A model generated the notes under the pieces. That model saw only the letters and a list, made by a program, of their open reading frames with translations, was not told the origin of the DNA and searched no databases. 47,072 bases of DNA, from NCBI GenBank assembly GCA_010093995.1, contig ML992536.1, positions 1-47,072 on the forward strand, written 5' to 3'. Position numbers and translations under genes: made by a program. Below are positions 1 to 31,454 of this stretch, piece by piece. How positions within the stretch are numbered: position 1 is the first letter of the stretch; the number at the start of each line of letters is the position of its first letter. The stretch comes from Elsinoe ampelina (Eukaryota).

Positions 1-77
1 TAGAGGCTATAGTAGCGATAGAGGCTATAGTAGCGATAGAGGCTATAGTAGCGATAGAGGCTATAGTAGCGATAGAG
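1..77. repeat. 18-bp tandem repeat TAGAGGCTATAGTAGCGA, >=4 copies, truncated by window edge
   Basis: Directly visible. On the minus strand it reads in frame as (S-I-A-T-I-A)n within the relic ORF starting at 448. Confidence 0.95.
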
Positions 78-448
78 TTGTCGTTACTAAAGAAGTCCTT
101 GTCCCTATAGATCTCGTCGTTACTATCGTTAGGATTATACTTGTTATTCTTCTCGCTAGAGTATATAACCTTAACATACTTATACTAGTTAATAAGATTA
201 CCTTTAACGTTATAAACCTTATTATAGTCGAAGTTAGAGCGCTTAATAAAAGCCTATAGGAAAGGGTCGACGATAAGGTTAAGGCTTTAGATCTAGTCTA
301 GAGTAAAGGAGATATTAGTATCGGTACTAATTATCTATAGTATGTAGTAGATTCCCTTAAGCGTAGTATACTTTCGTTCGTCTAGGGTAAGTAAGGTAGT
401 AATAGTAGTAGCTAAGGCTTAGGCTTACTAGGGTCTAATTCTAGATAT
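1..448 (-). pseudogene. RIP-inactivated ORF, unknown product, hexapeptide repeat, runs off window
   Basis: One frame from ATA (ex-ATG) at 448 to the edge with sparse TAA/TAG (Q/W-derived): ...LLTLDERKYTTLKG...LNLIVDPFL*AFIKRSNFDY...DKDFFSNDN(SIATIA)n. Confidence 0.6.
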
Positions 449-1508
449 AGTAAATGTAAGTTAGTAGTCGTAGTATACTATATATATAAGAGTCGATAGT
501 GTAGTAAATTAAATTAAGTGTTTAATACCTCTATCTAGGGGGGAGGAAACTCCCTAATATACTAGTAGTTAAGGAGGAAGATATTTACTAGGTATAGTAA
601 GTAGTCTACTATTACTATTAAATATACCTTTAAGCAAATATTTGCTACACTACTCTAGAGTCTATAAACGTAAACAAATCTCTATAAAGGGAGGCTAAAC
701 CTTAGATAATTAGCTTAGCGTCGCTTCTTAATTATATATAACTAATCTCTTAATATACTAAGTAACACTATTATTAGGTCGTTATATATAGTTGTTAGAC
801 ATAGCTAATTAAGGTAGTGTAGACTATCGACTATAGCGCTAGATAGAGGCCTTATTAGGCGTATATCCTATTATATAAATAGTCGAAGCTCTTTCTCGTA
901 GCTAGTACTAATTCTAATCTCGCTTATAGTTATTTTACTCGTAGCAATCCGTAGCATGTAAGTAGATCTAATACCTCTAGATGTACTAACTAGTAGAGAA
1001 GGTAGCTAAGAGAGCGTTTTACTCCTTAAGTAGTAGAAGTTAGGGCCTTAGCGCCTATACCTTACCTAACTTACTAGAATTGTTAATTCTACTCGGTCCG
1101 AGAGATAATAGACAATAGTAGCAGCTATACTCTAGATAGAGATTCTAAAATAAGGGACGCTCTAGTAAGGTATTATAGTAGGTACTATACTACGCTCGAG
1201 GCTATAGTCTTTAGGTACATTACAGCTATATAGACGAAGTATAAGGAGGCATTAGGTTTGTTAAAGAATATACAAGCTTAAATTAGACTACTATTTAGCT
1301 ATTCTAAAGAACAAATAAAGCGCTAAGTACGTATAGATTAAAGAGAGAATAAAGATAGCTAAGGAGGTAGAAAGTATATAGATAAAATAAAAGTATTAAT
1401 ACTATTTTAGACAGTAAATGTAATACTATACGTAGGGGTAGATATTATAGAGGGAATCTAACGGGATAAGGTTTCCTAGCGCCGAAGATTAAGTAAGCCT
1501 AGCTTAAA

Positions 1509-2903
1509 TTATATATAGATATACGTACCTTCTGTTTCTAAGAAGTAGGCGATAGTAGTATAGATAAATCGTTCTACCTTAGGATTACTCTATATAGGCA
1601 TATTAGAAAGTCCGCGCAAGATAATACTTATAAGCTTACTAATACTATCTATAGACCGAGGCGTAGTTATAAATAGATTAGGTGTAGCGCTACGCTAGCG
1701 AGCTAGGTAGCTACTACTAAGTATCGAAGATAGTACAGAACTACCTCGAGAGATAGCTATAAGAGCCTAAGTCCTAGTAAGTAGTATAGAATAACGAGAA
1801 GGAGACTAGGTAAGGAGGAGAATACTACGCGAAGAATCTATTATAGAACTAAGAGGATAATTAACATCGACCTCTAGAATCGCTAGATAAAGAATATAAG
1901 ATCGACCGTTTATAATAGTATAAGTAGGACCTATAGTAGGAGAGCGTATAGTAGTTAAAGGGTCTATAACTACTAGAATAGTAAGCTACGCTAGAGAGAC
2001 CGTAGAGGTATAAGAGCCGGCAGAATAGGAGCGTATAGTAGATATAATAGGCCTATCTAGCGGATAGCGTAGAATATAGGCTAGTTAGCTAGTAGAGTCG
2101 TTTCTAACGAGAAGCAGATAGAGGCCGCGTACTATAAAGCTCTCTCTAATTACTAAGTTAAGGTTCGGAAGGGACTAACTATAAGGAATAAGCTAATTAA
2201 TACTTATACGTAGATTTATAAACGCTAAGGAGGTTATTATAGGTAAGTTTCGTAGGACTATATCGGCTATAGAGCCCGCGATAGTATACGTCTTAGTATC
2301 GCTACTAGCTTAATAGTAATAAGTTAAGGTCGTATTACTATTATAGTGCGTATCTACGCCGGTTCTACCCTATAGGCGGATGTTAGTAGTGTCTATAGAG
2401 CGAGGATTAGGACTAGTAGAGAAGTTATAGGAAACGTCTCCTACTACGTATTAATAAGATAAAGCCTAGATAAGTAAGTCTTCAAGCTCTTCGACACTCT
2501 ATTATAGGTCCTAAGTACTCTATAAGAGGTATTAAACCGAGCGTAATAAGTTCGAATTAGAACTACTAGAGCGATCTCTATTACGAGCTAGTAGAAGGTC
2601 TACGTACTAAGTATAAATACCTTTATATAGAGGAGGTTATAATTCCTACTACGTAGTACTACTGTATATAGAGCTAGGCGGAGAGGCTAAACCCGAAGGG
2701 TCTAAAGTAGAAGCCTAAAGTCTATAGGCCTAGTTAGGTAAGATACCTCCTTAAAGTAGTATATAGAGAGCTTATAGGTAATTATTCCTAACGCGACTAT
2801 TCGAGGTGTCCCGACTATTAATAAGACTATTGTAAATGCCAACACCCTCTTCTTATTCTTATAGAAGTATATAATAGGTATCCGACCTCTAAGACGTAGC
2901 TAT
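1509..2903 (-). pseudogene. RIP-inactivated ~465-codon ORF, unknown product
   Basis: Start context TAAA-ATA-G (de-RIP CAAAATGG). A single frame is maintained for 1,395 nt with only scattered TAA/TAG. 3' end approximate. Confidence 0.6.
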
Positions 2904-3593
2904 TTTACGTATAACTAGAAGAGGTATATAAAGGCCTAGAGGGTATCTACGATTAGGCTAGAGAAGAGTAGAGAGGTATATACCGAGATGTTACGACTAA
3001 AATAGCTAGTTAGATACTAGGTTTAGGAAGGACTATATAGTTATAGCGACTAACTAAGATAAGTAGGTAAGTAAGTACGAAGTAGAATTAGTATTAGTAT
3101 ATCGAGAATGTAGTTAGTTAGGGGCATTAACTTAAATACTATTAGTTTCGTGTGTCCTATAAAGCTAATAGGTACATTAATTAGTTAGGCTATATACGTG
3201 CTCCTATATAATAGTAAATAGGGAGACTAAGAAGCCTAGAATAGGTCGAAGGACAATTAAAGCGTAACGAGTAATAAATCGTATAAAACTAGGGAAAGCT
3301 AGATAGAAGATTATAAGTAGGAAGATTTAGTAGAATTCGTCTATAGTGTAATTTAAATAGAGTTAAGGGAATAGAGTTCTTAATAGAGAAGTCTTAAGCT
3401 ATTTATACTATTTAATAAGGAAAGCTTAAAAGTAAGCTTAATAGTAATCCTATACGGCTAGATTAAGGAATTATATATACCTAGGTACTATAAGATTAAG
3501 AGAGTTACCTATTATAGTAAGTAAGTCTATTCTCTATACGCTAGAGTAGTATTATCTATAGCTTTTAGCGTTATAGTAGACTTTCCGTGTAGT

Positions 3594-4500
3594 ATGTCTA
3601 AATAGAGCTAAAAAGACATAAACGGACATATTAGTACGGATTATTAGTCGAGAGCAGTAGTAAGTACGAGTAATATTAAGGACGATTCCTAGTCTAGAGA
3701 GTTCCGTACCTATTCTCTCTATTCCTAAAGCTCTTACCTAAAGCTCGAGTAAGACGTATATTAGCTAGACCGAGATAGCCTTATAGCTAATAGACAACTA
3801 AACGACAAAGTTAATAGCCTAATTATAATTGCATCCCTATACGAGATAGTGTTAATTATATATAACTAAGAGAGTTACGTATTAGAATTTCGATATTAAA
3901 GCAAGGCACCGGATCTAAATCTCGTCTTAGTAGTAGTTTCCTATCCCGCGTACTAGCTAGCTATAGACTATTACGGACTATATCTACTACTATAGCTTAG
4001 CAAATTTTTCTCGCGTACTATAGAAGCTAATACAAATACCTACCTCCCCTATATTAATCCGATAGCTATCTAGAAGTAATAACAGTTATATAAGACTTCT
4101 AGAGTAACTTATATATCTAGTGTAGCTATAGTAGCGAACTTAGGTGGCCCCGCTTATAGGATCTTTACGATAGAACAATAAAGGCTATCGGCCGCTAGAC
4201 TAATAGGATGTCTTCTGTTCTATTATATAAGACCTTACCTCCTATAATAACATTCTAATTAGTATACATGTATCTATTTTATAGACTATCGTTTGTATAT
4301 ATAATGTAAACGTAGTACTAGCAAGGTTTATATATAATCCGCTAGCGCTCGAGTAAGATTATTATATATACTACTATTAGCAATTAGGACCTCGCGATGT
4401 TATAGGTAGGCTAGGCGAATATAGGGTATTAATAGAGACTTTATCCTAGATATATAATAAACTAAAATCTTAATCCTTATCTAGGAAAGAATACTTCTTC
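3594..4500 (+). pseudogene. RIP-inactivated ORF, unknown product
   Basis: Surviving ATG at 3594 followed by a stop-poor frame (MSK*S*KDINGHISTDY...DRDSLIANRQLNDKVNSL...VSYPAY*LAIDYY). End uncertain. Confidence 0.45.
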
Positions 4501-5167
4501 GTTAATAGACATTTGCTTCGTATAGTAGTCTATTATAACAGCACTTTAATGTTATTAAATTATATAGAAGCTACTATATCGTATATATGTTTTATATACA
4601 CCGCCTAGAGCTAGTCCTTCGGATAGGAATAATTAAAATAGACTTCTATAGTACTCTATAGAGGGATTCTAGCGCTATCGATATTACTCTACTTAGTTAT
4701 CCTACTAGTATACTACGCTGTTCTATCTCCTATTATAAGCGTAGGAAGCGATATAGAGATTACTCTTTCGCATCCCTACTATTAGTATCTATTAGCCCTT
4801 TTAGATTAGTCGAGATGCCTCTAATACGTCGTTTAGGTACGATATATTATTATTCTCTACTATAGCGATAAACTACTTTTACAATTAACTAGACTAGTAA
4901 GTAGCTTATAGTAAGCTATTTATCCCGTTCCTTAGAAATTACTACCTAATCGATAGGTTTCTAATAGTATCTACGCCTAGGCGGAACCTATTTAAAAGTC
5001 TATAAGAAGGTCCTCGTCGACCTATTTCTCCCTAACTTCTATTCTTACAAGCTCTTTACTAATTCTTAACTTCCTTACTACTAATTAGTACTTTAATAGT
5101 ATCTCTATCTAACGTATAGGTCGACGATTCTCTTAGCTATCTATTAGAGATAGATCGAGCCCTACGT

Positions 5168-5740
5168 ATACCTCGCTATAAGCGTACTAGGGTATATAAA
5201 TATATAAGGTCTTACTTTATAATAACTAACCTATTTTAGAATACCGACGAGAGCGATACTAGTTACTCCTCCTCTACTAGTAGTAAGAAGAGGAAGGCTA
5301 CTACTAAGAAGCTTACCTACCCTAGGCCTATTAACTTCCCCGAACTCCTTACCTACTTTTAGAAGCTTTAGAGTAATATATCGGCTACCGCTAAGGAGCT
5401 TTAGTAGGTTTATAACGGTCTAGTAAGGATTATAGATCTAGTTAAGAACGATAAGGAGTAGAAGGAGTTAGTATTTACCTATCTTATAGGGGCCTATAAG
5501 GATTACTATAACGACACTTAAGAGCTTAATAACTTTACTAAGGGTACATAGAAGAAGGTTAACTAGGTCTCTAGCTTTAATACCTACGTTAATACTACTA
5601 TAAGTCTACCGACTATCTACCTCTTATCCTCGCTAATATTTTAGAACGCTAAAACTATAACTAATAATAGAGGTATAGGTAGTAACTACGCTAAGGCCGC
5701 CTAAGGGTAGCTATAAGGTATAATACTAGGTAGCTAAGAG
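5168..5740 (+). pseudogene. RIP-inactivated three-exon gene, basic NLS-like KKRK plus helical region
   Basis: Exon 5168-5191 (ex-ATG PRYKRTR); intron 5192-5239 (GT...ACTAAC...TAG); exon 5240-5599 (NTDESDTSYSSSTSSKKRKATTKK...); intron 5600-5644 (RIP-hit donor ATAAGT, branch GCTAAT, TAG). Both introns are phase 0 and preserve the frame. Confidence 0.75.
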
Positions 5741-6125
5741 TGTAGGATTTCGAGTTTAAGATGCTATATAGTATTCTTAGAGGAGGAATTAGGATTTCTT
5801 ATAGCTTTACTCCTAGGCTTTTAGTACGTCTACTCCTTCGTTAGCTAGAGAATATAAATTTAGTTACCTACTAATTTAACTTGCCCTTATTATACTTAAA
5901 ATCGTGAATTTAGAGTCTTAAATAATCTATATCTTACTCTACTAGTTATTTTACGCATTAAAAGTATATAATAACCTTAGCTAAATAAGTTCCGATATAT
6001 CGGTTAGTTAATCCTCTATCTATAGCTACTTCTAACCCTATACTTTACTATATAGATCACTCCTAATCTATCTTATTACTATTACCCCTACTCCTAAGGC
6101 GGCCTAAAATCGGCTTACTTCTAGT

Positions 6126-7385
6126 ATAGCTAGTAATTAGACAATAGTTAGCCTAGAAGCTTAACTCTATAGCGAATCCTCCCCTAGTGTCGATAACTCT
6201 TCCTAGCTTCTAGTAGATAAAGTTAGTAGAAGAGGCTCCTTTATAGGACTACTACTCTAACTACTACTTACACCCGATAGACCTAATAGTAAAGATTAGC
6301 TAGATCTCGATATAACTACCCCTAACGCCTACGCTAGCCTCCCTATAGACTAAAATTAGTAGCGAAGCGTAGTCCTAGTCGACCCTTCTAGAGACCTTCT
6401 CTACCTTAATAGACTTAATTAGATCCTAAATAGATAGGAATATCTAGCTATAGTCGAGATATATTAAGACGAAGTAGGGATTATAGATCTTAACTATTTC
6501 TAGTAATGTCCTAGGGATCTAGAAGGTAAAGTATAAGAACTTCTAAGTTATAGTAGTAGGGCGAAACTCGAGGAGAAGTATAATTAGTATAACGCTAGTA
6601 TCTAGCCTACTTATATTAGTTAAATCGATAGCTAGGAGTAGGTTACGAAGGAGACATACGTATTAAATAGGGCTAACCTAGAGCTAGAGCTAAGAGTAAC
6701 TCTCTCCTCTAGAGTCTTCGCTTCCTATACTTAACGCTAGTAAGGCTACTATAGTTAAGATACGAAGTAGAGTATACTAGGTAAGGGGGCGCCTACGCTA
6801 TAGGTCCTAGCTACTAGGTCGGCGTACTTAACTTTCCCTATAGTAAGTAAGTAAAGAGTTTAGCCTAGTAGTATACTATATACCTCGTCTACCTCTTATA
6901 CTAAAGGTGTTATTTAGGGAGAGCGCGAGGAGATAGTCGACTAGAACTACCGTATAGGATTAATATATAAATCTAAAATAGGCGTCGTATATAATTACGT
7001 AGCCTATAATAGAGCTTAGTTCGATAAAGTAGACCTATAAAATAAGATACTCGAGGGATCTTAGAGCTATAGGTAAAGGCTAGTAAGTCCTTCTTATATA
7101 GTTATAACTGCCTTAACTAGCTGTAGGATCGCCTATATCTAGTAAGATCTCTAGATTATAATAAGTAAGGAGATAGTAGAGCTAGATTCCGGCGATAATA
7201 TTATATTAATCTAAGTCCTTAATAGTGCCGAGCTCGATATCTAGCTAATTATATAACTTAGCTATAGCTACGAGACGATCTTCGCGTTACCTCTATTAGT
7301 AAGCCTTCTATCGTATAAAGACTAAGACTATAGCGAGTAGTCTAGGAGTATAGTAGATATCGAAAGGGATAGACGAAGGTCGTAG
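6126..7385 (+). pseudogene. RIP-inactivated ~420-codon ORF, unknown product
   Basis: Single frame from ATA GCT (ex-ATG GCT) at 6126 with protein-like codons and Q/W-type stops only; no frameshift seen. Confidence 0.55.
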
Positions 7386-8039
7386 ATAAATATTAGAGCT
7401 TTCTTTATTATCTATTTTATTATATAAGTAAAGTATAATATATAATAAGTAGAGATTTAGAAAGAGTAGATTTAGGAAGAGTAGGTCTAGAAAGAGGAGG
7501 TAGGAAGTAGAGAATTTCTAATGTAATATAAATTATAATAGACCTAATTAAGTTTACTTTAATACCTAGTAAGCACTAGTAAAGTAGATACGGCATTAGC
7601 CTAATTCTCTAAGAGTATAGCGTCGCTACTAAGGTAATTCTAAAGTATGTCTTAAGACTTACCTTATATAGTAGAGAGTCTCTCGATTATATCGCTAGTT
7701 ATAGTGCCTAAGACTATAGATAGAATATCTGTACACGATATTATAAAAGTTAGATCTAAGAGTATTACGCTCTAGAGCTAAGAAATTACCTCGCCTACGA
7801 GAAGACGTAATATAAAGATAGTTAAAACTAGTATATTATAAGGAACAAAAGTATATAGCTTTTAGAATATAAGGTAGTTTAACGTCTTACTTCCGGGGTT
7901 TAACATTTAATCTAGTAAAGCTTAACCTTGGGACTATTTACGCTAATATCCTAATAGCGTATTTTAGGTAATACTTAAAAGTTAATTAGAATCTTTCTAT
8001 CTTCTAACGCTAAGCTATTTAGCTAAAGGACTTGTCTAT

Positions 8040-9150
8040 ATAGCGCTCGAGTAGACTATCTCTAAGTAAGGCACTTGCCCTTAGTAGTAGCTACTAGCTA
8101 CTCTTAGACAATGTTAGCCCTACTATTACTTATAGAGCTATAATAGTATACGAGACTTTATAGGAGCATCTTAGGACCGATAAAGGACAATACTACCTAC
8201 TAGCTTTATAAAGCCTATTATAGCTTATAAACGACTAGTAGATATATCTACTAGCACGAATAGTTATACCTTCCCTACGCGATAGCTTATCTACTATCGA
8301 TCTTACCTAGGTATAGAAAAATGTTACAATAACTGTAATAGAACGATATAGTAGAGTATTTAAGGCTCCGCTAAAATCTGCACTTACTGTAGATAAGCGA
8401 CAAAGGTTCTTAGAAGTAGAGATGTTTCGAGTAAGTCTCCTACTATTCTAGTAGGGAGAGATCCCTCGAGGCCGACACGAAGAGGTTAAGGAATAGTTAG
8501 CTATAAGGCTACAGTAACTAGCTAGTTCTATAGTAAGCTACTAGCTACTAACTAGATAGTTAGACATAGGAGAGGAGCTTACCTTCCGATAGTTAATAGC
8601 TAGATAGTTTAGTAAAAGGGGAAAAAGTTAGTAATAAAGGGTTCTAGAGAAGTACCTAAGTAGACTTAGTAAGGAGTAGAGAAACAAGAGCCTAATTAGA
8701 TAGTAAGTTAAGCTAGGGACTTATTATAGACAAGTTACTAGTAAAGGACTAGATTAAGTGTAATAATAAGTTTAGATAGGCCTATATAGCCCCGAGACTC
8801 TATAATAGTTTATTTGTTTCGCGCTAATTAATACGTAGAGGCAGTAGTCGGGCTACTTATAAAATTAATTAAGAATCTAGAACGAGAAAGTATACTAGAG
8901 ACATCGCTAGAGATTAGGTCCTATAGCTAAGGATCGGTCTAGTAAGAGGAAGTCCTCGAGGTATACTTCGGAGTATAATATTTAGAAAGAAGAAGTTAGT
9001 AAAGTCTATAATATTAGAAACCTTTCCTATACTAGCGAAGAAGAGTACGAATATATAGTAGAAGCCTACGATAGTAGCGATTATAGAGGCGGAGGTAACT
9101 ATAGAGTTAATAGAGGTAGAGGTACTTACGGCGTAAAATAGTAGAGCTAA
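8040..9150 (+). pseudogene. RIP-inactivated ORF with acidic/Gly-rich C-terminus, unknown product
   Basis: Frame reads ...DKRQRFLEVEMFRVSLLLF**GEIPRGRHEEVKE...KRKSSR...SEEEYEY...DSSDYRGGGNY. Start and a possible internal intron are uncertain. Confidence 0.5.
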
Positions 9151-9499
9151 GGTAAGAGGGTAGATAATAGTAATATAGTAGACTAGAGCAATTCTATAAT
9201 AATAACCCGAATTAAAGTCCTATAAAACTTAATACTATTAATTATAGAATATTGCCCCTCTATTACCTTAATCTTTATAATCGGTTAACTTCTTTAAAGG
9301 AGAAAGTATACTATTCCGAGATTTAAATATAGCTAAGTAGTTTTCTCCTTTTTATCCTACTAGAATTATTATTCTATACCTACGCTTCCTATAGGCTATA
9401 TCTATCGTTAATAACACCTCTTCTAAAGCTTAACTATAGAATTAGTAGGTAAGGTACCTCTACTCTAAGATCTTCCTCGATCTTTAAGATAGTTCTAGT

Positions 9500-10181
9500 A
9501 ATATATACTAGATAAATAGCTCGCACTTTAGGTTCTAGATCGTAACATACATAGTTATTAAAGGCCTCTACTAACATATGTCTTACTAGTAATAGCTTAG
9601 AACGAATACTACGTACTTCGACAATATAAATTCTTTATGTATCTACTAGACTATATAGAGTAGAGTCGATTATAGCCTTAACTAAGACTATATCTAAGCA
9701 GTTAGAAGCCTTCGAAGCTTAAGTATATATACGCTACAAAGTTAAAGACTAGCTCGAATACTAATCTACTATATAGAGGATTTGTACCCGAAGTAATCTT
9801 CCTTAATTACGTGTAGACTACCTAAGCCGCTATAGCCTTCTAATAAGAAAGTTATCGTAGCTATTTCCTAAAGTCGAGCTATCTTCTAAACCTACCTAAT
9901 CCCGTTATACTAGTGTATATAATCCAGGTCGTTAGTTACCTAATAATAGCTATATATTAGACCTAGGCTGCTTGCTTATATGTAATTCTTACTTATAGCG
10001 ACGTAGCTATATTAGATCTTACCTAGATATAGTAGGTAATTAACTCTTATATATACTTCGACACGGAGAGGGGGAACGTTAGGATAGAACGGGACCTAGG
10101 TAACCTAAAATACCTCTAGGTAGATAGCTTAATTAATCTATAGAGTAGTAAACCTACGTAGAGGGAGAAGTAGATAGTTAA
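9500..10181 (+). pseudogene. RIP-inactivated spliced gene, unknown product
   Basis: Phase-0 intron 9723-9776 (GTATAT...ACTAAT...TAG) joins ...TISKQLEAFEA* to RICTRSNLP*LRVDYLSRYSLLIRKL... in frame. A second branch/acceptor lies near 9570-9589. Confidence 0.5.
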
Positions 10182-10229
10182 TCTATTTAATACTTATAAA
10201 TATACTTTACTCGAAACGATAATCGATAC

Positions 10230-11210
10230 ATTATATAGAGTATTTCTATCTAGTATAATTATACCTTTCGCCCTTATATAAGATATTTGCTATATATTCC
10301 CTATCCCCTCGTTACTAGAAGCTAGTTAGCTACTTAGTAGCTAGGATAGAAGTACTATACCTAAGGCTATCGAAGGTCTTAACGGGTAAGCTATACTATT
10401 CTTATGTACTAGATTATAGAAGCCTATACTAGTAGGCAAATGCCCGCTATTAGACGGACTAATATAAGCGACTAGGAAGGTCCTAGCTCTTTCGCTACTC
10501 GTTTAATTCGTTTACGAGCGGTCTCTCTCTATACCTCGCCTCTTGTAATCTCTTTAATTTATCGTCCTTCTCTTTTAACTAGATATACTTATATTAGGTC
10601 CTCTTAATAACTTTATATATCTAGGGTAGACAGGAAGATCTCCTAACCTTATTACTATAGCTAGACTTAACTATAGCCTTAGTCTTCGATAGCCTTTACT
10701 CCGATCCTCTACTAGAGACCTCTCCTTCTAGAGCTTAAGAATAATCTCTAGGTACTTCTAGTTATAGCGCTTTATTTTAGAATTACTTATTGTTACAAGG
10801 AGTTACGCTTTTCTTCTAAGGACGACTTATCCTAGCCTTCGACTTTGTCTTTAGACTAAAGCTAGCTTTAGTCTTATCTATAAGTATAAGATAAGCTCGA
10901 ATAATATTAGAGGCTTACGAGAAACTTACTAATTACGCGGTCTAGTAAGCCCTAGCTAATATCTATAAGTAATTCTACGTTACTAGATTACTTAGAGGAG
11001 TTATAGAGACTAAGTACTTATATAAGCTTAATAATCTCTTCGACCTTATCGGTAGCTTTCTCCGCTCTATCCTAGCAGTAATAATATAGCATTTACTAAG
11101 TCTTTATTATAACTTTCACCGGTCTAGTAGCGGCGGGTAGTCCTATAGCTTAGAATAGTATTAGCACTATAAATAAGATCTCTACGAAGCTCGATAGACT
11201 ATCTCTTTAT
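10230..11210 (-). pseudogene. RIP-inactivated spliced gene with Myb/SANT-like domain
   Basis: Intron 10929-10878 (GTAAGT...TAG) preserves the frame. 10581-10441 reads *LKEKDDKLKRLQEARYRERPLVNELNE*RKS*DLPSRLY*SV**RA, which de-RIPs to WSKEKDDKL...LPGRSYQSVQQR, matching the Myb/SANT W-S-x-E-x-D-x-x-L...PGRS pattern. Confidence 0.6.
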
Positions 11211-11577
11211 ATAAAAATAGATACTTATAAATATATATTATAGAAATGTACTGGGATATCTTATATTAAAGTAGTTCAATCGCTACGGACATCGATAGTA
11301 CCTCTTAAAAAGCTATTAGGTAATATAATTAAGACAGGTAGCTACGGAGCTAAGTAAATTTAATTGTTAGCGGTTTATACTTACTTCTATACGACTAGTA
11401 CTATAAGTGGCCGCTTAAGACGAGATAGACTTATTTATATAAGTTCGATAAGTAGGAGGCGTACTAATTATAATAAATATGTGTCTCGTAATTAAAGGAA
11501 GCGTTTTTACCCTCGGGGACGGCGTTAAGCTATATTAAGGGCTATTTATATAACTAGCTACTATTACTATTCTAATA

Positions 11578-14500
11578 TTAATTCTATTCTACCGCTAGAG
11601 TAAACTTCGACTAGCGTAGTAAATTTCGTAGTAGATTACGGTTAAATACGTATAAAGCTCTAGTAGAGTATAACTAAATACTTAATTAATATAGAGTCTA
11701 GGATACATCTACTAGTATAGAGTAAGGTAGAGAAAATTTACTTAATTTCGTAATCGAACGTACTATTAGCTTTCGTATATACTATTTAGTAACTATTTAA
11801 CTATAGATACTCTAGTCGCGCTCTATTATAGATTTGTAAGGAGTAACTAGCGGTTAATATCGGTCTTCTACGTCTTTAACCTTATTAATACTTAGACTTC
11901 TACTAACTAGACACTCTATAATTTCGTTAGCTAGCTCGGACGCGCTTATAAGAAGAGCTAGATAGTCGATACGCTGTCCCTTATCTTTACTGTCTAGAGA
12001 TAGACTATCTAATCGAGCATCGACTAAGACTTTATTACTATCTAAGATGTCTAGGGAGACTAATTTATTAGTAGCTAGCTATAATAACTCTTAAGTTTCT
12101 ACGAAAATACTATGCCTATAAATACCGCCGGTTTTAAGATCGTTAGAGGTTAGAAGGATAGGTATTCCTAGTCGCGAGTATAGTAAACTTTAAATGTCGC
12201 TATAGGTATAATAGCTAACTATATCCGCTAGGCGACATAGCTAGACTACGAGAGAGAGATAGTGTTATAGTTTCGATGTTATATAACTCTCTAGACTAGA
12301 ATATTTAGGTTCTTATACCCTTCTATCGTATTTACCTAGAGATATATATTCCTTCGATCCTCCTTAGTCGTAGTCCTATAAAGGATTATAGTAGGCAATT
12401 ATAGCTTTCTAGAGTACATTTAATGCTTTATCTATACTTTTATCTAGATCCTCCTAAAATAGAGCATTAACATCTACCTAAGTAAGTATAAAGCGTAAGG
12501 TATACCTATATAGCGATAGAAGTGTATAGACAAAATCCCTAGATCGCTCTAGTAAGATCCGTAGAGAGTCGTATAAGACGTAGAATTCGTCGATAGACTT
12601 ATATAATTCTCTAGTATTAACTTTGTACAAACTATATAAGCGTTACGATTCGTAGCTCTAACTAGGCTATTAATTAGAAAGGAGTAACTATTCGAACTAT
12701 AAGAATAAGCTAGGCTGCGGTATATCTACTAAGTTAAGCTTATAGATTATAGTAGTTAGTTAGGCTACGGTAGTTTTATACTATACTTATAACAAATTTA
12801 TTATATCTCGAAATGTAGTTAGCCTATCGAATAGTCGCTTACTAAAGAATAGATCTATTACCTTTGTACCTAGAACTAAAGTGTTCTAAAATTAGGCTAG
12901 TATATCTTCTCTTAGGATATAGAGAAAGTAATTTTCTCTAGTATCGTAAAACATTAGAGCGTACTAGAATTTAGATATCTCTAAGAAGAAGTCTATCGAG
13001 CTAATCTTAGCTAGTCTAGCGAATCTAACTTAATACTCTATAAAGATAGGGAAAGAGATATAATTAAGAAAGACCTAGAGATCTATAGCTATAGACTCTA
13101 TAAGGTTAAATTCGATATATACTCCTTATAATTTCTTCGCTACCTTCTTAAGTTAGAGTATTCTCTTCTCTTATAGATTTAGATTATCTCTCTAACTCTA
13201 GAGTAGAGACTATAGTTAGTAATTCTCTAGTGTAATAGACTGTAATAAAGGGGCAATCTATAGCCCCCGTAGTAATTTAGGTATTAAAACGGTCCGATCG
13301 AGGTGTATTAATACGTTTATCTTAATCTATCGTAGTACGTCTAGATTAATATAGTAACGCTAAAGCTAAGAGGGAAGCGTAGACTATAAAGGCATCTAGA
13401 ACTTTAATAGGACACTTACGAGGATATAAGGTAGTAGAAGGAAGATGTCCTTACTATAATTAGCTATAAGTAGTAAATGACTATAAGCTACTACTCTACT
13501 AGTAACGTCCCTTAATATATAGATTTCGTATTTAACTATAGACTTTGTGCTCTACCGACTAGATAGAGCACCTATAGTAAATAGTACAACTATAGTTAAT
13601 AAGTCTATAGCTATAATATATACCTACGCGGAGAAACTACTATTAGCTAAATTATGTATCTTATATAAGTAGAAGACGCTATCTATAGAAGCACCTAGTC
13701 CTCCTAACTACTATATAAGTAAGTAGTAATATACGTGTAGTTCTAGACATACTAGGTATAAATAGAACGAAGTTTAATCTAAGGAGCTTAAAGGTAGTAC
13801 AGCGAGCTAGTATAGCTTTCTATATAGGACTTAGAAGGCTAGTAAGGGCATACTTGCCTAGATAATTAGTGTTATTATGTTTGTCTATCGAAGGGTGCTA
13901 AGTAGATAGTAGTTAAGGTTATTTAAAGCTTCGAGTAGGTAATATTATATTTTATACGGAATAATAGGATCTAGTATAGGAAAAACGCTAGCTATTTTAG
14001 TTTTATATCTCCTATCGTGTATTAACATATAGAGTAGAGCTATATATGTGCCGAGCGGCGTAATATATATAAGTACGCTACTAAGTAGGTATAGTTACAT
14101 ACTATAGTATATAGCATATACTAGCTCTATAGCGAACTTATCGTAAATATATCTTTTAAGAGAGATAGTACTCTTCTAGACGCCCGAGGGAGTAATATTA
14201 TTTAGATCGATCTAATCTAGCTTTAGTACTATAGGTCGAGGGGGTATTACTTCTTAAGAGTTAGTAGTCTCTAATATCGCTACGAGTAGAGTAGTAGTAT
14301 AGATAATACTATGTCTAATAATATTAGAGAAGCTTCGAGTAGGGAAAACTTAGTTAAGCTTATTAACTTCGGATCCTCGATACTATAACTTACTTAGGCT
14401 AGTATTTAGCTATTACATACGTAAAAAGAGTAGACTCGTAGCTGACTCGATAAAGAGTCTTCCTATCTTAGTAGTTACGTTTATTACTAGCGTTACAATC

Positions 14501-15777
14501 TTAATATACGAGCTAGAACTAAAAAAAGACTATATAGGCTCGATTAAATATTTATTCTATTTTAAAGGATATAGACTATCCTATTCTATTTCCGAATGCT
14601 TTTACTTTAGGTAGCTACGCTATAGCCTAACCTTTATCGCTAGAGCCTCCGGTTTCTCTACTAACTCTATATCCTTTATAAATACATCCTCGTCTATACT
14701 ACTATAGGCGTTAGTTAAGCGATTAGCCGACGCCTTCGTTTCTATTATGCTTGTACTAAGCGCTAGACTAGTTTTAGATTAAGATTACTAGCTAGGAGAG
14801 GATAGGGAGGTAGCTAGAAGTACTTTTATAGAACTACGTAAACCTAGCCTAACTAAGCTTAGCCTCTAGCGATCTACTAATTCTCTTCTAGGTCCTACTA
14901 TATCCGAGTCAAAATAGACGCTAATCTCTATAAGGTTATCCTCTCTAATACGAATAGTAGTTATACTCTCGATAAAGACACCTATATAGTTAAGCTATTT
15001 ATAGATAGCTTTAGAACGACCTTTATACTAGACGGATTATATAGAGGTTCTTCTAAGCTCTAGATAAGAAAGATTAGTTACTAGATATATAGTAAAGAAA
15101 TACTTTACTTTCGATTATACGCCGTCGAGTAGAAAGTTATTTAGCCGCGAGAGACTAAAGGAAAAACACAATTGTCTAAATATACACCCGAAGTTAATAG
15201 CTATGCTAACTATAGGAAGCTCTACTCGGTCCTTATATTACTCTTCCTTCTTCGTTAGATCTCGATACTTTAGGTTATATTAGGACTTAAAGTAATTAAA
15301 TGTCGTAATACTAGATGTTATAATTATTATAAAATACTTATTATAGAACATTATAAAAGGTTCTACGAGATAGTAGAAACATAATATAACATAGTTAGAA
15401 GTATATTATAAAAGGTAGTATTTATCGTAATTATCTATCCTACTAAAATTTATAGTATTTACTTTATGTCTTAGACCTTACAAACGGAGCTTTAGAGCTT
15501 CTAACGTATAGCTCTATCCTAAGCCTATATCGTCTATAAGAGTTACGACGAAATACGTACCTAGCTTATCTCCCCTTAAAAACAATAATACGTAAGCTTT
15601 AGTAGGTATCTTAGCTAGCGACATTCGATATATAGATAGTAAGTAAATAGGATATACTTATTACCTATAACTTACTCGAGCTAGTCCGAGGTATAAAGGG
15701 CCTTGGACTATATAGTCTATACTAACTTAGAAGACTTACAAAGCCTAGAAATGCGCTATAGGACTACTCTATTACAT
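11578..15777 (-). pseudogene. RIP-inactivated ~1,400-codon intronless ORF, unknown product
   Basis: ATG at 15777 and one frame for 4,200 nt without frameshift. Hand count is about 90 TAA/TAG stops (~6%, consistent with Gln+Trp codons converted by RIP). Spot-checked alternative frames are much more stop-dense. Confidence 0.8.
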
Positions 15778-15986
15778 TGTACTAGTATATAGATAGCCTC
15801 TACGAATCCCTATTTACGAGTATTACCTTTATTACCTATATAAGATTAGAGATAACTAACCTCTTAAGCTAATTCTATATATTATCGATAGCCTTATCTT
15901 CTTTACTTCTACTTCTTTCTCCTTTGTATATTATTAAGATAATAATACTATTATTTTATTAACCTAGTATTACTAACTTCTACCGC

Positions 15987-16088
15987 ACCTAATTATCCGC
16001 TGTACCTAATTATCCACTATACCTAATTATCTACTGTACCTAATTATCTGCCGTACCTAATTATTTACTATACCTAATTATCCGCTAC
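15987..16088. repeat. 6 x 17-bp direct repeat, core ACCTAATTAT, consensus ~ACCTAATTATCCRCYGT
   Basis: Cores start at 15987, 16004, 16021, 16038, 16055 and 16072 (exact 17-bp period). Copies differ by C/T and G/A transitions. Confidence 0.95.
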
Positions 16089-16317
16089 CTACCTATATAT
16101 CTTTATATAACTTCGACACGCTCTATATATCTAATCTTCTAATATTAAGTACTACGCAACTATTATATTAAATTTAGATTAGAGTAGACTATAGCTCGGT
16201 AATCGATTCTAGTATTTAGTAGGCCCCTAAATGCTAGTCTAGTCTCTAAGTATAGTGTACTTTAAAAAAAATCTGCTTAGCCGTTATTACTTCGATCTAG
16301 AGTCTTTAAAACCTACG

Positions 16318-19306
16318 ATGTTAGCCTTTAATAATTAACTTAGAGAGGCCCTACTCCGAAAGAATAACCTAACCTCTCTAGTACTTTCCCTATAATAACC
16401 CTAGTCTATAGCGATATTAATATTAACTTATTAACCTTAACCTCGAAGAGAGTCTTTAATAATAACTACCTTAGAAGCTATTACTCCCGACTACTAAGCT
16501 TCTAAAGCCTCGTTCCTAAGCGTCCCGCTTAATAATAGTATATCTATCCTTAGACTACTATACGACATCTATCCGACATATACTCGATATAGTATAACTA
16601 CCTTTAAGATTCTTCTCTACTATAGTCTCTCTTTAGCCTATGTACCTATTAAGCCTCTTATACCTTAGGAAACTTATCTAGCTTACGCCTAGATATATAA
16701 GTCCCCTCTAATCTAACTTTACTAATAACCTTATTATTCTATAGTAGAAGGAGTATTCCTTACTATTTTCTTTATAATTTCTAATATATTATAAAGATAT
16801 GCTTATTAATCTCCTAATCTACTAGTTATTAAACCTACCTAGACGCTAGTCTATTAGCCGCTAGAGGGGTAGGCTTAAGAGCGCTAAGAGTCGTAGGCGA
16901 CGTAGAGTAGAAGTTAATAGTAGTCGGGCATATAGTCTAGGACCTAGTTTTCTACGATGCTACAATTATAAGCACCTATCTAATAGGCCTTCGAATTATG
17001 TAGACAGATTAAATCTAGAACTTTAATAAATTTATTATCTTACTAGTCTAGAAAGGTTTTATATAAGACATCTATACGTACTATACTACTATAATAGTAG
17101 TTATAATATAGACTAAGTAACGTAGCGCATAGAGGTTCGTAGAAGACTCGATTAAAGATATTAGCCGCTCTAACGCCTAGAAATAGCTAGCGATAGTGAA
17201 TATAGATAACTAGGTCCCTACTCTCTATAATAGGGCTCCTACTTTCTTAAAGAGGTATCTATATATTCTTATCCTCCCCTTAGGTACTAGCTCGAAGTAT
17301 ACGACATAACCTATATTATTTATATAGGATTTTATAGTATAATAGCGTCGGAGCCTCTATAACCCCTCTAAAGACTAATTATAGATAACTAGTCCGCCCT
17401 AGCTAAGGGCAATATATTCGAGGCTTTATAACGGTATAGGTAGGTTATTAGGGGTTTTAAATTTGCATCTATAGATAGCGCTATTAATTGCTCGAGGACG
17501 TACTATAGCTCCTAGTCCTATACTAATCGTTTATAGACTCTATAATAAGAAGCTTAGCATAGTAGACCTAGTTAGTTAGCGCTCTTCGACGTAAAGAGTA
17601 GCTCTACTATAAATGTAATAAACTAACGCTATTAGTCGAGACTATCCTAAAGACCTATTATAGCTTTCTACCTTAGTGTCTACGCTATAGATCTAAGGTA
17701 TCTAGAGATTATACCTAATATATAGTAGGAAAGTAATTACGAAGGGTATATCTATTCGCAAAGCTACTATATTACTTTCTAATTCTCGAAAGATCCTTCG
17801 AATCTAGCTTAAGTAGTCCTAACGAGTTACTTACTAGAGTTATCTACCCTACTGCTTCTTATAACCTGCCTCCTTATACCTACCGGTTAAACTCTACTTA
17901 ACTAGCTTATAGATTTCCTTATATACTTCTACTCGAAGTTATCGGTCGAGTTAGATTAGTAGTTATCTAGAAGACTACCTTCGTAAATCCCTAGACATTA
18001 GTTAAGTTTCCCTAGTAGAGTTCTAAATTATCGCTAGAATATACTTAGTTACTCCCTTCTGAGAATTTACCTAGCTTCTTAGGTTTTAAAGCTACTATAG
18101 AGATCTACTAAGTAATATAAACTTGTGCCTTATAGCCTAGGATATAGGTAGACCTAATAAATCTTTAACCTCGACTTATAGACTTTAAGCTTATTATCTA
18201 GACTAGTAGTAGTCGTACTAATAATATAGGTAAGAGGTAAGTTTTTATTTAGTATAAGCTTAATCTAAGGATTAGACTATATACTAGTATATTCGAATCT
18301 ATACTAGCCTACTAGGAAGTAAAGGACAGCGTAATATAGTATTTCTCCTACACTTAAAGGTAGATATACTATGTCTCTATATTATTGTTACTAACGATGT
18401 AGCTTCGATTTCCTCTTCTACTAATTCTTAGTTAGAGCTCGAGGTAGTTAATAGATCGTATAAGTAGTCTACTTTCTACCTTAGAGTATTCTACTAGACT
18501 CGTTTTACACGATAATAGAACGTACTATTTCTTTTAATTAGCTACAATTTTAGGCTTTTAAGCTTCTAATAACTTTAGATAATACTTAGGTAGACCGATT
18601 ATATTAGATAGTCCTTGCTTTCTAATTACCTAGGTTTATATAGTAGCCTAGTTAACCTCTTAATAATAATAATAGGGATAGTAGTTTAAGTATAGGCATT
18701 ACTAGACGAATAGAAACTTCTACTCTATCTAGTAAGGACGTTGCCGATACTATAACGCTATAGTTAAGCTCTCTTACGTAAGGTGGAAGCTGCTATACTA
18801 CGTACTACTACTTGCTACGCTTATAGACTTTAGATTTTTTCGATAGTATTATAGCTATTTATGTAGAACGGTGCGCTCTAATCTAGTCTTTTAATAATAT
18901 AGTAATTAATGTTAGTTTATAGGTTAGCTAGAATGCTCGTTACTCTACCCTATAACTCTACTATTAGCGATATAGAATTCCTACTATACTATTAGATGTA
19001 TAGCGAGTTAAATTTATATAAGGATCTTAGCTATTTACCTATAACTAGAAGCGAGCTTAGTCTGTATCTACCTATTATATTACTTTTTTATCTCTTAAGA
19101 GATCTCGAGACCTCGCTAAAAGGTCTAAGCCTTTTATAGCGGAATTTCTAACAACTAGACTAATGTAATCTCCCTTATCTTCTCTATATCGACATAGGCG
19201 ACGTAGATACTTAGCCCTATAGTCTAGTAATATATATAGTCCTATCTAGAGATATTAGTATTATAGATAGTTAACGAGACATTCTAAATATGTAAGAAGA
19301 TAATAA
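16318..19306 (+). pseudogene. RIP-inactivated large multi-exon gene (or two adjacent genes), unknown product, possible CxxC
   Basis: ATG at 16318 and long stop-poor frames. A clear intron at 18360-18402 (GT...ACTAAC...TAG) joins frames in phase 2. Other introns near 16,700 and 17,500 were not resolved. FLRCYNYKH at ~16,950 may de-RIP to CxxC. Confidence 0.55.
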
Positions 19307-22206
19307 ATCATCTTTAAAGTTTAGCGCGAGGTCCCTATTAATTATAAGTCTACTTAGTACTAGACTTCTTATAAGTAACTACGTAGTAATAAGCGCTAGT
19401 CCTAAAGGCTTTAATATAAATCGGTAGAACTATGTATAGTCGTTTCTATCTCAAATGACAGATAAATCATTTACGTGGCTATAAGGTATATAAAGGCCTA
19501 TATTAAGTATGTATTGTAGCTTTAGTGAAATTCTGTAATATAATATAAATCACTATAGTAGCGGTTAACTAAAAGACTTCCTTATAGATTGTTTGCTACT
19601 TGTATTACGTTCTAGTTAACAAGTCTAGTGCTCGAGGTCCGAGTCTTGTCTTAGGTCGTTTGCTACCTATGTCTCGGGGTAGTGTAAGACCCCTATCTAC
19701 CACTCTATATTCTAACACCAACCCTAAGATTGTGGCTAAGACTATTATATAGTCTAACTAGCAGATTTGAACCCTCGATCTGGGACCGAGATGGGCCGAT
19801 CTAAAGGGATACGCAAAAATAATAATTATATAGAGTCAAGTAGTTTTAGTTTGACGAGCGTCCAGGACCATGGTGAGCAGCAAGGTATGATCGAAAGCAT
19901 GAGTGTGGTAATTTACGCTCAATTGAGACGATAACATTTTTGTCACACTCAAGTGCCATTGTTCCAAGCTAACCCTGATTCGACAGTGCGTGAGCACAAT
20001 GTTCCAAGCATAGGTCCCAGCCACAACTGCCAGACCATATTTGCTCTCAGAGAAGGCTCGGCGCTCGGGAGCGTTCTCTACCCCGGCAATAAGTACATTG
20101 GAGTAGTATCAGGGCATTGTGTATATGTGTTGTCGTGTAGAGAAGTAGGATCCTCGACTTCCAAGATTGCAGTTCGGGCTGCGGACTCCCAGATCCCAAT
20201 ACCTGACTCTCACAGTCAACTAGGCACTTTTCTCTGGTAGGAGAGTGTGGTGATCTCAGCCTGAAAGACGCCCGCTAGTGGTGTGGAAATTGCTGCACAA
20301 GTCCCGCTATGGCCTAGGTTCGCCGACCATTGTGACCCTCAATGTGATACCCGGCTTTCCTTGCACATCTACAGGAGCTGTGCCATGCGGATCGAGTTTC
20401 CTGGTAGGTGAGGACGCCGTCTATCGGAGCAAGAGAGTAGCGAAGCCGATGAAGCTGGTTCACGGAGATAGGAAGTGGATGTGAGACCATATCCAGATGA
20501 GGCATTTGCGATTTGGACAGACTGAATTGTAAGTGCGATGTAGATCGATACAGACAGGAGGAGGTCGGATCTGTGGTAGTACGACCAACGATCAGCTTTC
20601 AATTGCTCGCACGTCGATTTGCTCAGCCAAACACAGCGTGTCTTCGGCTAATAAAAGCGCCTTGGAAGACCTTCAGTACCAGATCATATCCCGCATCACA
20701 GTCTTCATCGTCGGGCGGAGCATGGCGGCCGACTCTGAGTGGTACTTGATCCCTGATGACGAGCAGCCGAGAGCCTCAGGTGATGAACGCAAGTTGGTAC
20801 ATAGTGGCGTGGTGGGTGTACATGAGAAGCCATGCGGCATAGCAAATGGGTAGAATTGCTACACCGACAGAAAAAAAAAGGCTACCGAGTGGCGACGGTT
20901 GAGCGAGGCGAATATAATGTATAGTAGGAAGTGGAGATAGAAAGATCTACGATATACCTGACATGACATTCTCTATTCCTTTGTTTGCAACGCTCCCAAT
21001 TGCAGCTCTTCTTTGTTCGAGCCGTCAATTACGCTTCGGGTAGGATCTGTACATCGACAGGGACGCACAAGCATTGCTACCGGTAGAGGTCTGCAAGGAA
21101 GAATTGATATTGCGTGCACCCGCTTGCAGCGACGACAGTACGGGCTTAGTCGTGAAGCCGCCGCCCCATCGATGTTCTGCAGGCGAGGGAGATGTGTAAC
21201 AAATGACATAGAATCTGCCAGAGAAAAAGACTGCTCGAGATTCCTACCAGTACAGCCCTGAAGAATGTTCCTTGCCAAGCTGGATAGGATGTGAGAGGAC
21301 CTGCAGCTTGTAGTACACTTGAGCTCCCTTGCAGGTCTTCCACAGCAAACCTTTGAGGTGCAATGCTCTGATCACCAACCTGCGTTGCTACGGGCTTTGG
21401 AGGTCACGATCGTAGGATTCCGACTGAGTTGGAGGATGGTAGCAACCCAGATAAGACATGCTTGAGTGGAAGGCAAATGATTGCCAATGTTGAGACTGGC
21501 TCTTTGGTGTGAGGAAGTCAGATGCTGGGACCGGTTTTGTCACATGTTTTTGTCTCGACGGGCGGCCGCGGAGTTGCTCGAGCTCAAAATCATCAGTGCC
21601 AGCCTTTGTCCCGCGCCGATAGCCGGCGGGCATGATTTGCAAGCGTCATGTCTGGCTTTCTTGGTGCAGAATCACGCAAGAAAAAAAAAGCTTCGAGCAC
21701 ACGTCGCAGCGCGCCGAGGGGCTGGCACGACTTTCTGCGGTGCACAAATCTCGTGCTTGTCTCGGGTCTCCCTCGCTGCCGGCTACATGGCCATTTTCTC
21801 TCCTCACTCTGTTCCAAGCAGACCATTCCGAGTCCAACACCCGAGGCTTGCTCCTGCTAAACCAGACAAGGCATCTCCGCCAGTCCAGACTGTGTGAAAG
21901 AAACGAGCCGAACGTGGGGAGATTTTTCTCTGGGTTGTTCGAGCTTGACCTGATCTGCCTGCCTGACGTGGGATCATCAACGGAGGTGCAGCAGCTTGCT
22001 TCCAACTGCATTCCCAATCCCCGAACTCGGATTCTTCCCGAACTGGACCAGAGGAACTGCAGGCTGTTATCTCGCGCCCACGCCCACCTTTCTTTCTCCC
22101 CTCAGGCAGTCCTCAAACTCCAGCACGAGCTCTACAGAAGTCGCACAATCCTTGTCACATTCCATACAAACCCATTTACCACGTCCGACACCACCCAACC
22201 GCCGAA

Positions 22207-29819: not shown

Positions 29820-30070
29820 GCTTGAATACGGATGATTGTTCACTCCGTGGGAGCTTGAAGCTTATCTATATTATTCCAAACATTACATACAAGTCAATCT
29901 GATTGGTCAATTCCTGAGCAACGCCCTTCAATTGCCCCTTCCGATAACCACGATCAGTCAGCATGCGCTATCCTTGGCGTTCGGATTTTGTGGAGCTCTG
30001 TTTTCGCCGCTATCAAAACTTCGCCTCTCCCTCCCTCACGGCCCCCAGCGGCCACCACACCTCCCACAAC

Positions 30071-31378: not shown

Positions 31379-31454
31379 GTTCATGTGTCTCTTTACTTCT
31401 CTGGATATTTTTATGATCAGCGGCATGATGGACATGGGGCTGACGGATACAAAG

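Follow-up and report, generated by a model that had tools for sequence, protein, structure and literature searches.

What is the AT-rich DNA that fills the first 20 kb or so of Elsinoe ampelina contig ML992536.1 (assembly GCA_010093995.1), and from what kind of sequence did it descend? The window analysed here comprises positions 1 to 47,072 of this contig (47,072 nt), in which a long block with a GC content of 33.7% (about 66% AT) adjoins a gene-rich flank. A sequence-only reading of the same DNA had described the block as a RIP 'desert' holding about ten fossil genes and had suggested a Starship-like or undescribed giant mobile element as its source.

The AT-rich block and its boundary

The block, its edges and the nearest flank gene are as follows.

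1 to 19,440, no strand: fully RIP-mutated AT-rich block (GC 0.29-0.39); the contig end falls inside the block
19,441 to 19,900, no strand: RIP gradient (leakage zone) from the block into the GC-rich flank, about 450 bp
1 to 77, no strand: 18-bp tandem repeat, 4.3 copies (TRF score 154, 100% matches)
15,979 to 16,087, no strand: degenerate 17/34/51-bp tandem repeat in the block (TRF scores 131-166)
21,967 to 22,707, plus strand: Kgd4/YMR31 ORF, the nearest tested flank ORF with a Pfam domain (PF10937, E 6.7e-34)

Our analysis confirms that positions 1-19,440 are RIP-degraded AT-rich DNA. The usual RIP cut-offs lie at about 0.89 for TpA/ApT and about 1.03 for (CpA+TpG)/(ApC+GpT). In 1-kb windows over positions 1-19,000 these ratios were 1.57-2.34 and 0.06-0.28, respectively, with a composite index of 1.29-2.28 and a GC content of 0.306-0.381. 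In sharp contrast, 1-kb windows of the flank (20,001-47,000) gave ratios of 0.35-0.87 and 1.03-1.59, a composite index of -1.17 to -0.16 and a GC content of 0.49-0.61. At finer scale there were 82-103 TpA per 500 dinucleotides over positions 1-19,500, and CpA+TpG came to just 1-17 per 500 nt over positions 1-19,440 (ratio to ApC+GpT 0.02-0.35). RIP strength was even across all 19.4 kb. TpA excess, loss of CpA/TpG and a GC drop with a discrete boundary are all present, and the RIP desert that had been claimed for the first 20 kb or so is thereby borne out.

On its right the block has one sharp edge: full RIP stops near position 19,440, and a short leakage reaches to about 19,900. Across this gradient CpA+TpG rises per 100 nt through 6, 7, 7, 9 and 12, then 20, while TpA falls through 17, 19, 12, 11 and 10, then 4, which is typical RIP leakage. 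Normal housekeeping genes start about 2 kb past the block; the flank genes include MoaA/MoaC, a histidine phosphatase, a PPR protein, Kgd4, GFA and a phytase whose ORF is 100% identical to an NCBI protein annotated for Elsinoe ampelina.

No intact ORF was found within the block. Stops make up 9.6-11.4% of codons in each of the six frames (634-753 per 6,600 codons), and the longest stop-free run is 101 codons (8914-9219, minus strand). This run was rejected as a gene: it lacks a Met, and its opposite strand is a purine-rich tract. The block also gave zero tRNA and zero Rfam family matches. At the contig start the 18-bp tandem repeat is probably the assembly break point; in two source-sample runs its 48-nt unitig had a depth of 1428 and 2250, versus 265 and 319 for the contig of the block.

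Coding footprints inside the block

Segments were scored from their stops and their purine/pyrimidine codon classes, which RIP leaves unchanged, and period-3 power was measured in an R/Y alphabet (blind to transitions) and expressed as a multiple of the mean. The block holds 26 segments scoring at least 12, whereas 100 first-order Markov simulations averaged 14.8. Its top four scores (52.5, 50.5, 42.2 and 39.6), which stand for two loci on both strands of each, exceed the simulation maximum of 35.5. Sliding 600-nt windows (n=127) showed period-3 power above 7x in 8 cases where 0.1 were expected, and above 4.6x in 15 where 1.3 were expected; the corresponding counts for the gene-dense flank were 23 and 34 of 176 windows, and two real flank genes reached 18.1x and 21.8x. 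The frame bias presupposed by the sequence-only reading was thus looked for and is present, both in scores above the simulation maximum and in period-3 windows above expectation. Coding periodicity is confined to about one third of the block; period-3 power is 0.9x at 7600-12,600 and 1.7x at 16,000-19,400. About five phase-coherent coding relics are real; they are listed below with the corresponding ORFs of the earlier reading (start position and strand) in brackets.

Relic A, 1188 to 4175, no strand assigned: coding (2903-, perhaps 3594+); period-3 power 15.9x
Relic B, 5084 to 5701, no strand assigned: coding (5168+); period-3 power 13.0x; 11 stops in 206 codons (plus), 7 in 177 (minus)
Relic C, 12,677 to 15,964, no strand assigned: coding (15777-), core 13,411-15,615; scores 52.5 (minus, 735 codons, 36 stops) and 39.6 (plus)
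Relic D, 2 to 1030, no strand assigned: coding-like (448-); scores 32.3 (plus) and 32.2 (minus), simulation 95th percentile 32.1
Relic E, 5817 to 7517, no strand assigned: weaker coding (6126+); scores 33.4 (minus) and 26.5 (plus); 9.3x for 6066-7517

Relic A scores 50.5 on the minus strand (877 codons, 61 stops) and 42.2 on the plus strand (930 codons, 75 stops), and it holds one phase over about 2.8 kb, from 1051 to 3900. A degenerate minisatellite was considered as the origin of its period 3 and rejected, there being no peak at other periods. Period-3 power is 9.0-10.9x in relic C. In relic D it reaches 19.1x in window 1-600, a signal that stems partly from the 18-bp repeat. The best relics have an in-frame stop density of 4.9-8.1%, versus 4.0-4.5% in host genes after simulated RIP. 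Relic sequence is about 30% mutated.

Strand is a different matter from phase. The purine/pyrimidine codon model recovers phase, not strand; a codon-table classifier trained on flank genes after simulated RIP called the strand correctly in 14 of 20 chunks and the exact frame in 7 of 20, and a class-asymmetry strand score for the relics ranged only from -4.5 to +1.2 nats.

The earlier count of about ten single-frame ORF relics holds for about five of them and not for the full ten. Four of the ten (448-, 2903-, 5168+ and 6126+) have a period-3 power above 4.6 when their first 900 nt are taken. The named frame has outright the fewest stops among the three same-strand frames in six ORFs, among which 15777- shows a marked bias (16 stops versus 39 and 35). 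It is tied for, or within one stop of, the fewest in 448- and 2903-, and has the most stops in ~9500+ and 16318+. Across all ten, in-frame stop density is 5.3-13%.

Homologues, controls and copies

Pfam searches of the six read-through frames of positions 1-19,900 returned no real hit; the sole entry, Pik1 (E 0.073, 13.4 bits), is noise. No RT, integrase, RNase H, transposase or helicase domain was found in these frames, in agreement with the earlier remark that no gag/RT/integrase/DDE motif could be recognised, and the relics gave no Pfam match to an LTR, LINE or DNA-transposon protein. Nor did Pfam find a DUF3435 recombinase in any of these frames, the far end of the block lying beyond the contig.

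Searches beyond Pfam covered relic A in both readings and relic C in its minus reading. Relic C (13,411-15,615, minus) had zero phmmer matches among 1.84 billion representative proteins. Word-index searches with relic A yielded no homologue among 6,907 candidates from proteins of 511-1628 residues (1386-4175, plus) or among 7,999 candidates from proteins of 314-1001 residues (1188-2903, minus), and the plus reading had no PDB match at E up to 1. In these phmmer and word-index searches neither relic showed a host-gene or fungal homologue. Metagenome contigs gave 183 and 171 pattern matches to 1386-4175 (plus) and 13,411-15,615 (minus), respectively, none of which was confirmed.

These negatives were calibrated on the phytase gene of the window. 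After simulated RIP to a GC content of 0.32-0.34 it kept 349-375 of 641 HMM bits and 241-268 of 478 phmmer bits, and the positive control succeeded, a long read-through translation costing just 3-4 bits. With more than half of the score retained after simulated RIP, this process by itself would not be expected to conceal an ordinary domain.

Self-BLAST of the block revealed no repeated fragments, no LTR pair and no TIRs. A self-comparison with transitions collapsed gave best values of 36 (direct) and 46 (inverted), versus 34-44 and 37-52 in 10 simulations. A mosaic of transposable elements would usually be expected to yield an RT, integrase or transposase signal as well as repeated fragments; Pfam gave no real hit of this kind, and neither self-comparison found such fragments. 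Of the public runs, only two, both of the source sample, contain the stretch. In the source contigs of these two runs no second copy was seen at 80% likeness or more, a weak test given the incomplete record set; at this likeness one contig spans the block and the others give just 18-21-nt stray pieces. Simulated sister copies were 74-93% identical and shared 25-369 exact runs of at least 18 nt per 20 kb. From the RIP signature alone we infer that the block was formerly duplicated.

Origin of the block and comparison with known systems

The best explanation, to which we give a probability of roughly two in three, is that the block belongs to the numerous AT-rich compartments of Elsinoe ampelina that lack genes and have been degraded by RIP. 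[quoted passage not shown] These figures favour the ordinary reading. Against it stand the missing domain signal, which the RIP controls make unexpected, and the lack of internal repeats and of a second copy in the comparisons above. The DNA would once have had two or more copies in the same nucleus, where RIP would have struck before meiosis; its ancestors would most probably have been lineage-specific elements of some age, either transposable elements or unclassified repeats, with ORFs of their own. Nearly all CpA/TpG would then have been turned into TpA, with TAA/TAG filling every frame, and some 450 bp of the unique flank would have been reached by leaking mutation. The remnant would be silent, probably heterochromatic filler bearing about five faded ORF footprints. 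The block breaks short-read assemblies, as the contig end in an 18-bp tandem repeat indicates, and it thereby accounts for the contig ending here.

Read as a further example of the RIP-degraded AT-rich compartments in which this species is already rich, the block matters little so far. The remaining puzzle is the set of about five coding footprints, for which the searches described turned up no counterpart among transposon, host or database proteins despite the RIP controls. Should they be relics of unclassified lineage-specific repeats, they would help to explain the makeup of the unannotated AT-rich fraction of E. ampelina.

Known TE superfamilies (LTR, LINE or DNA transposon) that decayed past detection through heavy RIP, long neutral drift and continuing deamination of methylated cytosines, the relics being pol or transposase genes, are an unlikely source. 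Relics of 2.2-3.3 kb fall within the size range of TE ORFs and so suit this explanation, and a relic stop density above that of simulated RIP hints at extra damage. Yet very heavy simulated RIP of the phytase gene (GC 0.25-0.26) still keeps 250-300 of 641 HMM bits. By a rough estimate, moreover, few CpA/TpG have been regained since RIP, since their ratio to ApC+GpT has stayed so low, and a phase that stays coherent for 2.8 kb suggests that indels were few.

Quite unlikely is a giant cargo element, Starship-like or of an undescribed type, that has become derelict, or else a segmental duplication in one piece; in either case a long multi-gene segment without internal repeats would have been duplicated as a unit and killed by RIP, its sister copy being later lost or segregated away. 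This reading would agree with coding relics that lack any TE domain, with even RIP strength over 19.4 kb up to a single sharp right edge with short leakage, and with the lack of internal repeats even after transitions are collapsed. RIP-mutated 'derelict' Starships are on record, as is insertion of some families into AT-rich sequence (PMC11162782). [quoted passage not shown] The roughly five relics have no Pfam domain and the searched ones no fungal homologue, which is unexpected for ordinary cargo; coding periodicity is limited to roughly one third of its length; neither a sister copy in the source contigs nor a relative in the metagenome contigs was found; and a special origin is unneeded in a genome that is 17.9% AT-rich (PMC7259788). 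As for the Starship idea itself, it is neither refuted nor supported: the matches named as speaking against it did not turn up, nor did any feature that defines such an element. A further-reaching version is very unlikely: that the block is what lies at the right of a giant element, or of a large one-piece duplication, that carried several lineage-specific orphan genes and was killed by RIP, with its recombinase and left end beyond the contig break, and that the 18% AT-rich fraction derives partly from such cargo elements and not from classical transposons.

That the block belongs to a regional centromere or pericentromere, which would be long, unique, AT-rich, gene-free, methylated and epigenetically specified DNA, is highly improbable, even though it has an AT content of 66%, carries no genes or repeats, extends over at least 19.4 kb and is bordered by housekeeping genes. 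The 17.9% of AT-rich sequence (about 5 Mb; PMC7259788) is far more than centromeres could supply, so any single block is unlikely to be one. A mitochondrial insert was rejected, as no mitochondrial gene domain is present and a TpA/ApT of around 2 points to RIP.

Among known systems, the centromeres of Magnaporthe oryzae, defined by CenpA ChIP, measure 57-109 kb, are at least 67% AT and have no common motifs or repeats (PMC6667624). The block resembles them in being long, unique, AT-rich and gene-free without shared motifs, next to conserved genes. Their identity, however, rests on CenpA binding, and AT-rich DNA is far too abundant in E. ampelina (PMC7259788) for most blocks to be of this kind. 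With Starships, as described in PMC11162782, the block shares a size in the range of tens of kb, several ORFs (here coding-like relics), a Pezizomycotina host and inactivation by RIP, which is described for duplicated Starship copies. It differs from them in that neither a DUF3435 captain nor a recognisable cargo gene was found. Starships have direct repeats at both boundaries, with or without terminal inverted repeats; of the block just the right boundary is on the contig, and no direct or inverted repeat inside it rises above chance.

The AT-rich blocks of Leptosphaeria maculans are mosaics of multi-copy TE families that can still be aligned. Unlike these, the E. ampelina block has no second copy or internal repeat that we could find, and its coding relics match nothing. 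In other respects it is like the AT-rich regions of Elsinoe (PMC7259788) and the AT-isochores of L. maculans (PMC3105345, PMC4943192): about 34% GC next to a gene-rich part of about 53%, extreme TpA excess with loss of CpA/TpG, no genes, TEs beyond recognition, a contig end and ordinary genes directly adjoining.

The RIP-degraded block and its edge

The window spans an entire contig of Elsinoe ampelina, the grapevine anthracnose fungus (Dothideomycetes), with an AT-rich block at its left end. The RIP desert claimed in the sequence-only reading of this DNA is borne out by base composition: GC is 0.306-0.381, TpA/ApT 1.57-2.34 and (CpA+TpG)/(ApC+GpT) 0.06-0.28 in 1-19,000, in sharp contrast to 0.49-0.61, 0.35-0.87 and 1.03-1.59, respectively, in the rest of the contig. 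At 500-nt resolution, TpA amounts to 82-103 dinucleotides per 500 nt throughout 1-19,500 and no spared island was found. Full RIP ends at ~19,440, and CpA+TpG rises from 6 to 20 per 100 nt across the following ~450 bp (19441-19900). Such a gradual fade is of the type expected of RIP leakage into a unique flank and would fit a duplicated segment, with its edge near 19.4 kb, as the source. The earlier reasoning from RIP to a past duplication is sound.

Past the gradient lie ordinary genes (Kgd4, GFA, MoaA/MoaC, histidine phosphatase, PPR protein), and the ORF at 32845-34125 (-) shares 100% identity with the NCBI protein "histidine acid phosphatase [Elsinoe ampelina]". Neither tRNAs nor Rfam families were detected across the window. 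At 29948-32707 (+), MoaA-like (Radical_SAM + Mob_synth_C) and MoaC-like ORFs share one frame with a single stop (31376-31378) between them; this arrangement suggests a single fused gene for molybdenum-cofactor synthesis of the MOCS1 type, the stop presumably lying within an intron.

Coding relics within the block

Stops make up 9.6-11.4% of codons in every frame of the block. Since RIP causes transitions only and leaves purine/pyrimidine (R/Y) classes unaltered, coding structure was tested in the R/Y alphabet. Maximal segments were scored on stops and R/Y codon classes against 100 Markov simulations; the top segments reached 52.5, 50.5, 42.2 and 39.6, compared to a simulation maximum of 35.5.

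Features of the block (relics are coding-like remnants that may lie on either strand; period-3 power in multiples of the mean)
1-77: perfect 18-bp tandem repeat, 4.3 copies, opening the contig
2-1030: relic D
1188-4175: relic A, 15.9x
5084-5701: relic B, 13.0x
5817-7517: relic E, 9.3x in its part 6066-7517
12677-15964: relic C, 9.0-10.9x

Two real flank genes gave 18.1x and 21.8x for comparison, and no coherent period-3 signal was present in 7600-12600 and 16000-19400. Sliding windows above 7x numbered 8 of 127 in the block (0.1 expected) versus 23 of 176 in the gene-dense flank. The phase of relic A is constant from ~1,050 to 3,900, which implies few frameshifts; a decayed minisatellite was ruled out here, as no periodicity other than 3 was seen. 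About ten single-frame ORFs had been proposed for the block. The named frame has the fewest stops outright in six of them, is tied or within one in two and has the most stops in the other two, and period 3 is significant (first 900 nt) in only four; we therefore count about five real relics and not ten.

The longest open stretch of the block (101 codons, 8914-9219 (-)) is hydrophobic, of low complexity and without Met. The plus strand opposite is rich in purines and would translate into an acidic, RGG-like peptide; this candidate gene, which looks like an effect of composition, was rejected.

Repeats, copies and identity of the relics

Self-BLAST of the block returned only the 18-bp array and a degenerate 17/34/51-bp array at 15979-16087, one plus-strand frame of which gives a repeated "QLSAVPNYPLYLII"-like peptide. 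Unitig depth of the 18-mer in the source runs is 5-7 times that of the block's contig (1428/2250 vs 265/319), so the array either extends further than the contig shows or also occurs at other sites, and the assembly probably broke because of it. When transitions were collapsed, so that independent RIP cannot mask similarity, the best self-matches scored 36 (direct) and 46 (inverted), within the range of ten simulations (34-44 and 37-52). Thus, neither approach revealed an LTR pair, TIR or internal duplication in the block. Among public sequencing runs, this DNA occurs in only two, both of the source sample. Among their contigs compared to 1-20,000 at 80% likeness, one covers the block without differences and two others contribute only stray pieces of 18-21 nt; simulated sister copies remain 74-93% identical, with 25-369 exact runs of at least 18 nt per 20 kb. 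A second copy thus appears to be absent from the contigs of the two source runs, a result that is suggestive only because the filters of the contig listing drop some records.

A Pfam scan of six frames of 1-19,900 (stops read as Q/X; E up to 0.01 or 0.1) gave no family except a Pik1 match at noise level (13.4 bits, E 0.073). No reverse transcriptase, RNase H, integrase, transposase, helicase or DUF3435 recombinase was found, in agreement with the earlier failure to recognise gag/RT/integrase/DDE motifs. As a positive control, a long read-through of the flank recovered MoaC, Mob_synth_C and Radical_SAM with a loss of 3-4 bits. RIP was also simulated, with context probabilities of our choosing, on the window's own histidine phosphatase (phytase) gene, and the products were scored with a family HMM derived from 96 homologues. 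At the block's GC (0.32-0.34) the gene kept 349-375 of 641 HMM bits, and its phmmer score against a homologue of 51% identity was 241-268 of 478 bits; at GC 0.25 it still kept 250-300 HMM bits. Simulated RIP, likewise under chosen probabilities, left 68-79% of residues unchanged and introduced 4.0-4.5% stops. Direct searches were empty: the minus reading of relic C had no phmmer match (E up to 0.001) among 1.84 billion representative proteins, word-index searches with relic A confirmed 0 of 6,907 (plus reading) and 0 of 7,999 candidates (minus reading), the PDB search gave none, and 183 and 171 pattern matches in JGI metagenome contigs yielded none confirmed. Together with the empty Pfam scan, these searches indicate that, as far as tested, the relics are unlikely to be RIP-damaged copies of annotated host genes or of any recognisable TE protein.

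Origin of the block

Two oddities remain. The relics are real coding footprints with few frameshifts and no match, though RIP alone should leave them recognisable, and the block lacks internal and, suggestively, genomic repeats. Lineage-specific, unclassified repeat families would explain this best, followed by extra decay after RIP and, last, by one-piece duplication of orphan genes.

According to supplement file 5 of PMC7259788, AT-rich regions cover 17.9% of E. ampelina YL-1, with TEs at only 1.59%, versus 0.92% AT-rich in E. australis; the main text gives 1.03% for E. fawcettii, and recognised TEs are ~2% or less in all three. Recognised TEs therefore leave most of the AT-rich fraction of E. 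ampelina unexplained, and the species-wide abundance of such DNA stands against a special origin of the block. A centromere is possible in form, being unique, AT-rich, gene-free DNA as described for M. oryzae in PMC6667624, but is unlikely for any single block, because 18% of the genome looks alike. A Starship-like giant element, the origin previously favoured, is defined in PMC11162782 by captain, boundary repeats, empty site and cargo. As tested, neither TE or host matches nor a loss of frame bias speaks against it; yet no DUF3435 captain or recognisable cargo domain occurs in six frames of 1-19,900 (the contig ends inside the block, the left end lying beyond), nothing positive points to a Starship, and this origin, neither supported nor refuted, is improbable.

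The block is probably no more than an ordinary AT-rich compartment degraded by RIP, with ORF relics of no known match. Its likeness to the AT-rich regions of E. fawcettii as reported in PMC7259788 (mean GC 33.8%, half at contig ends, 66% without recognisable TE) is exact: it has a GC of 33.7%, lies at a contig end and carries no recognisable TE.
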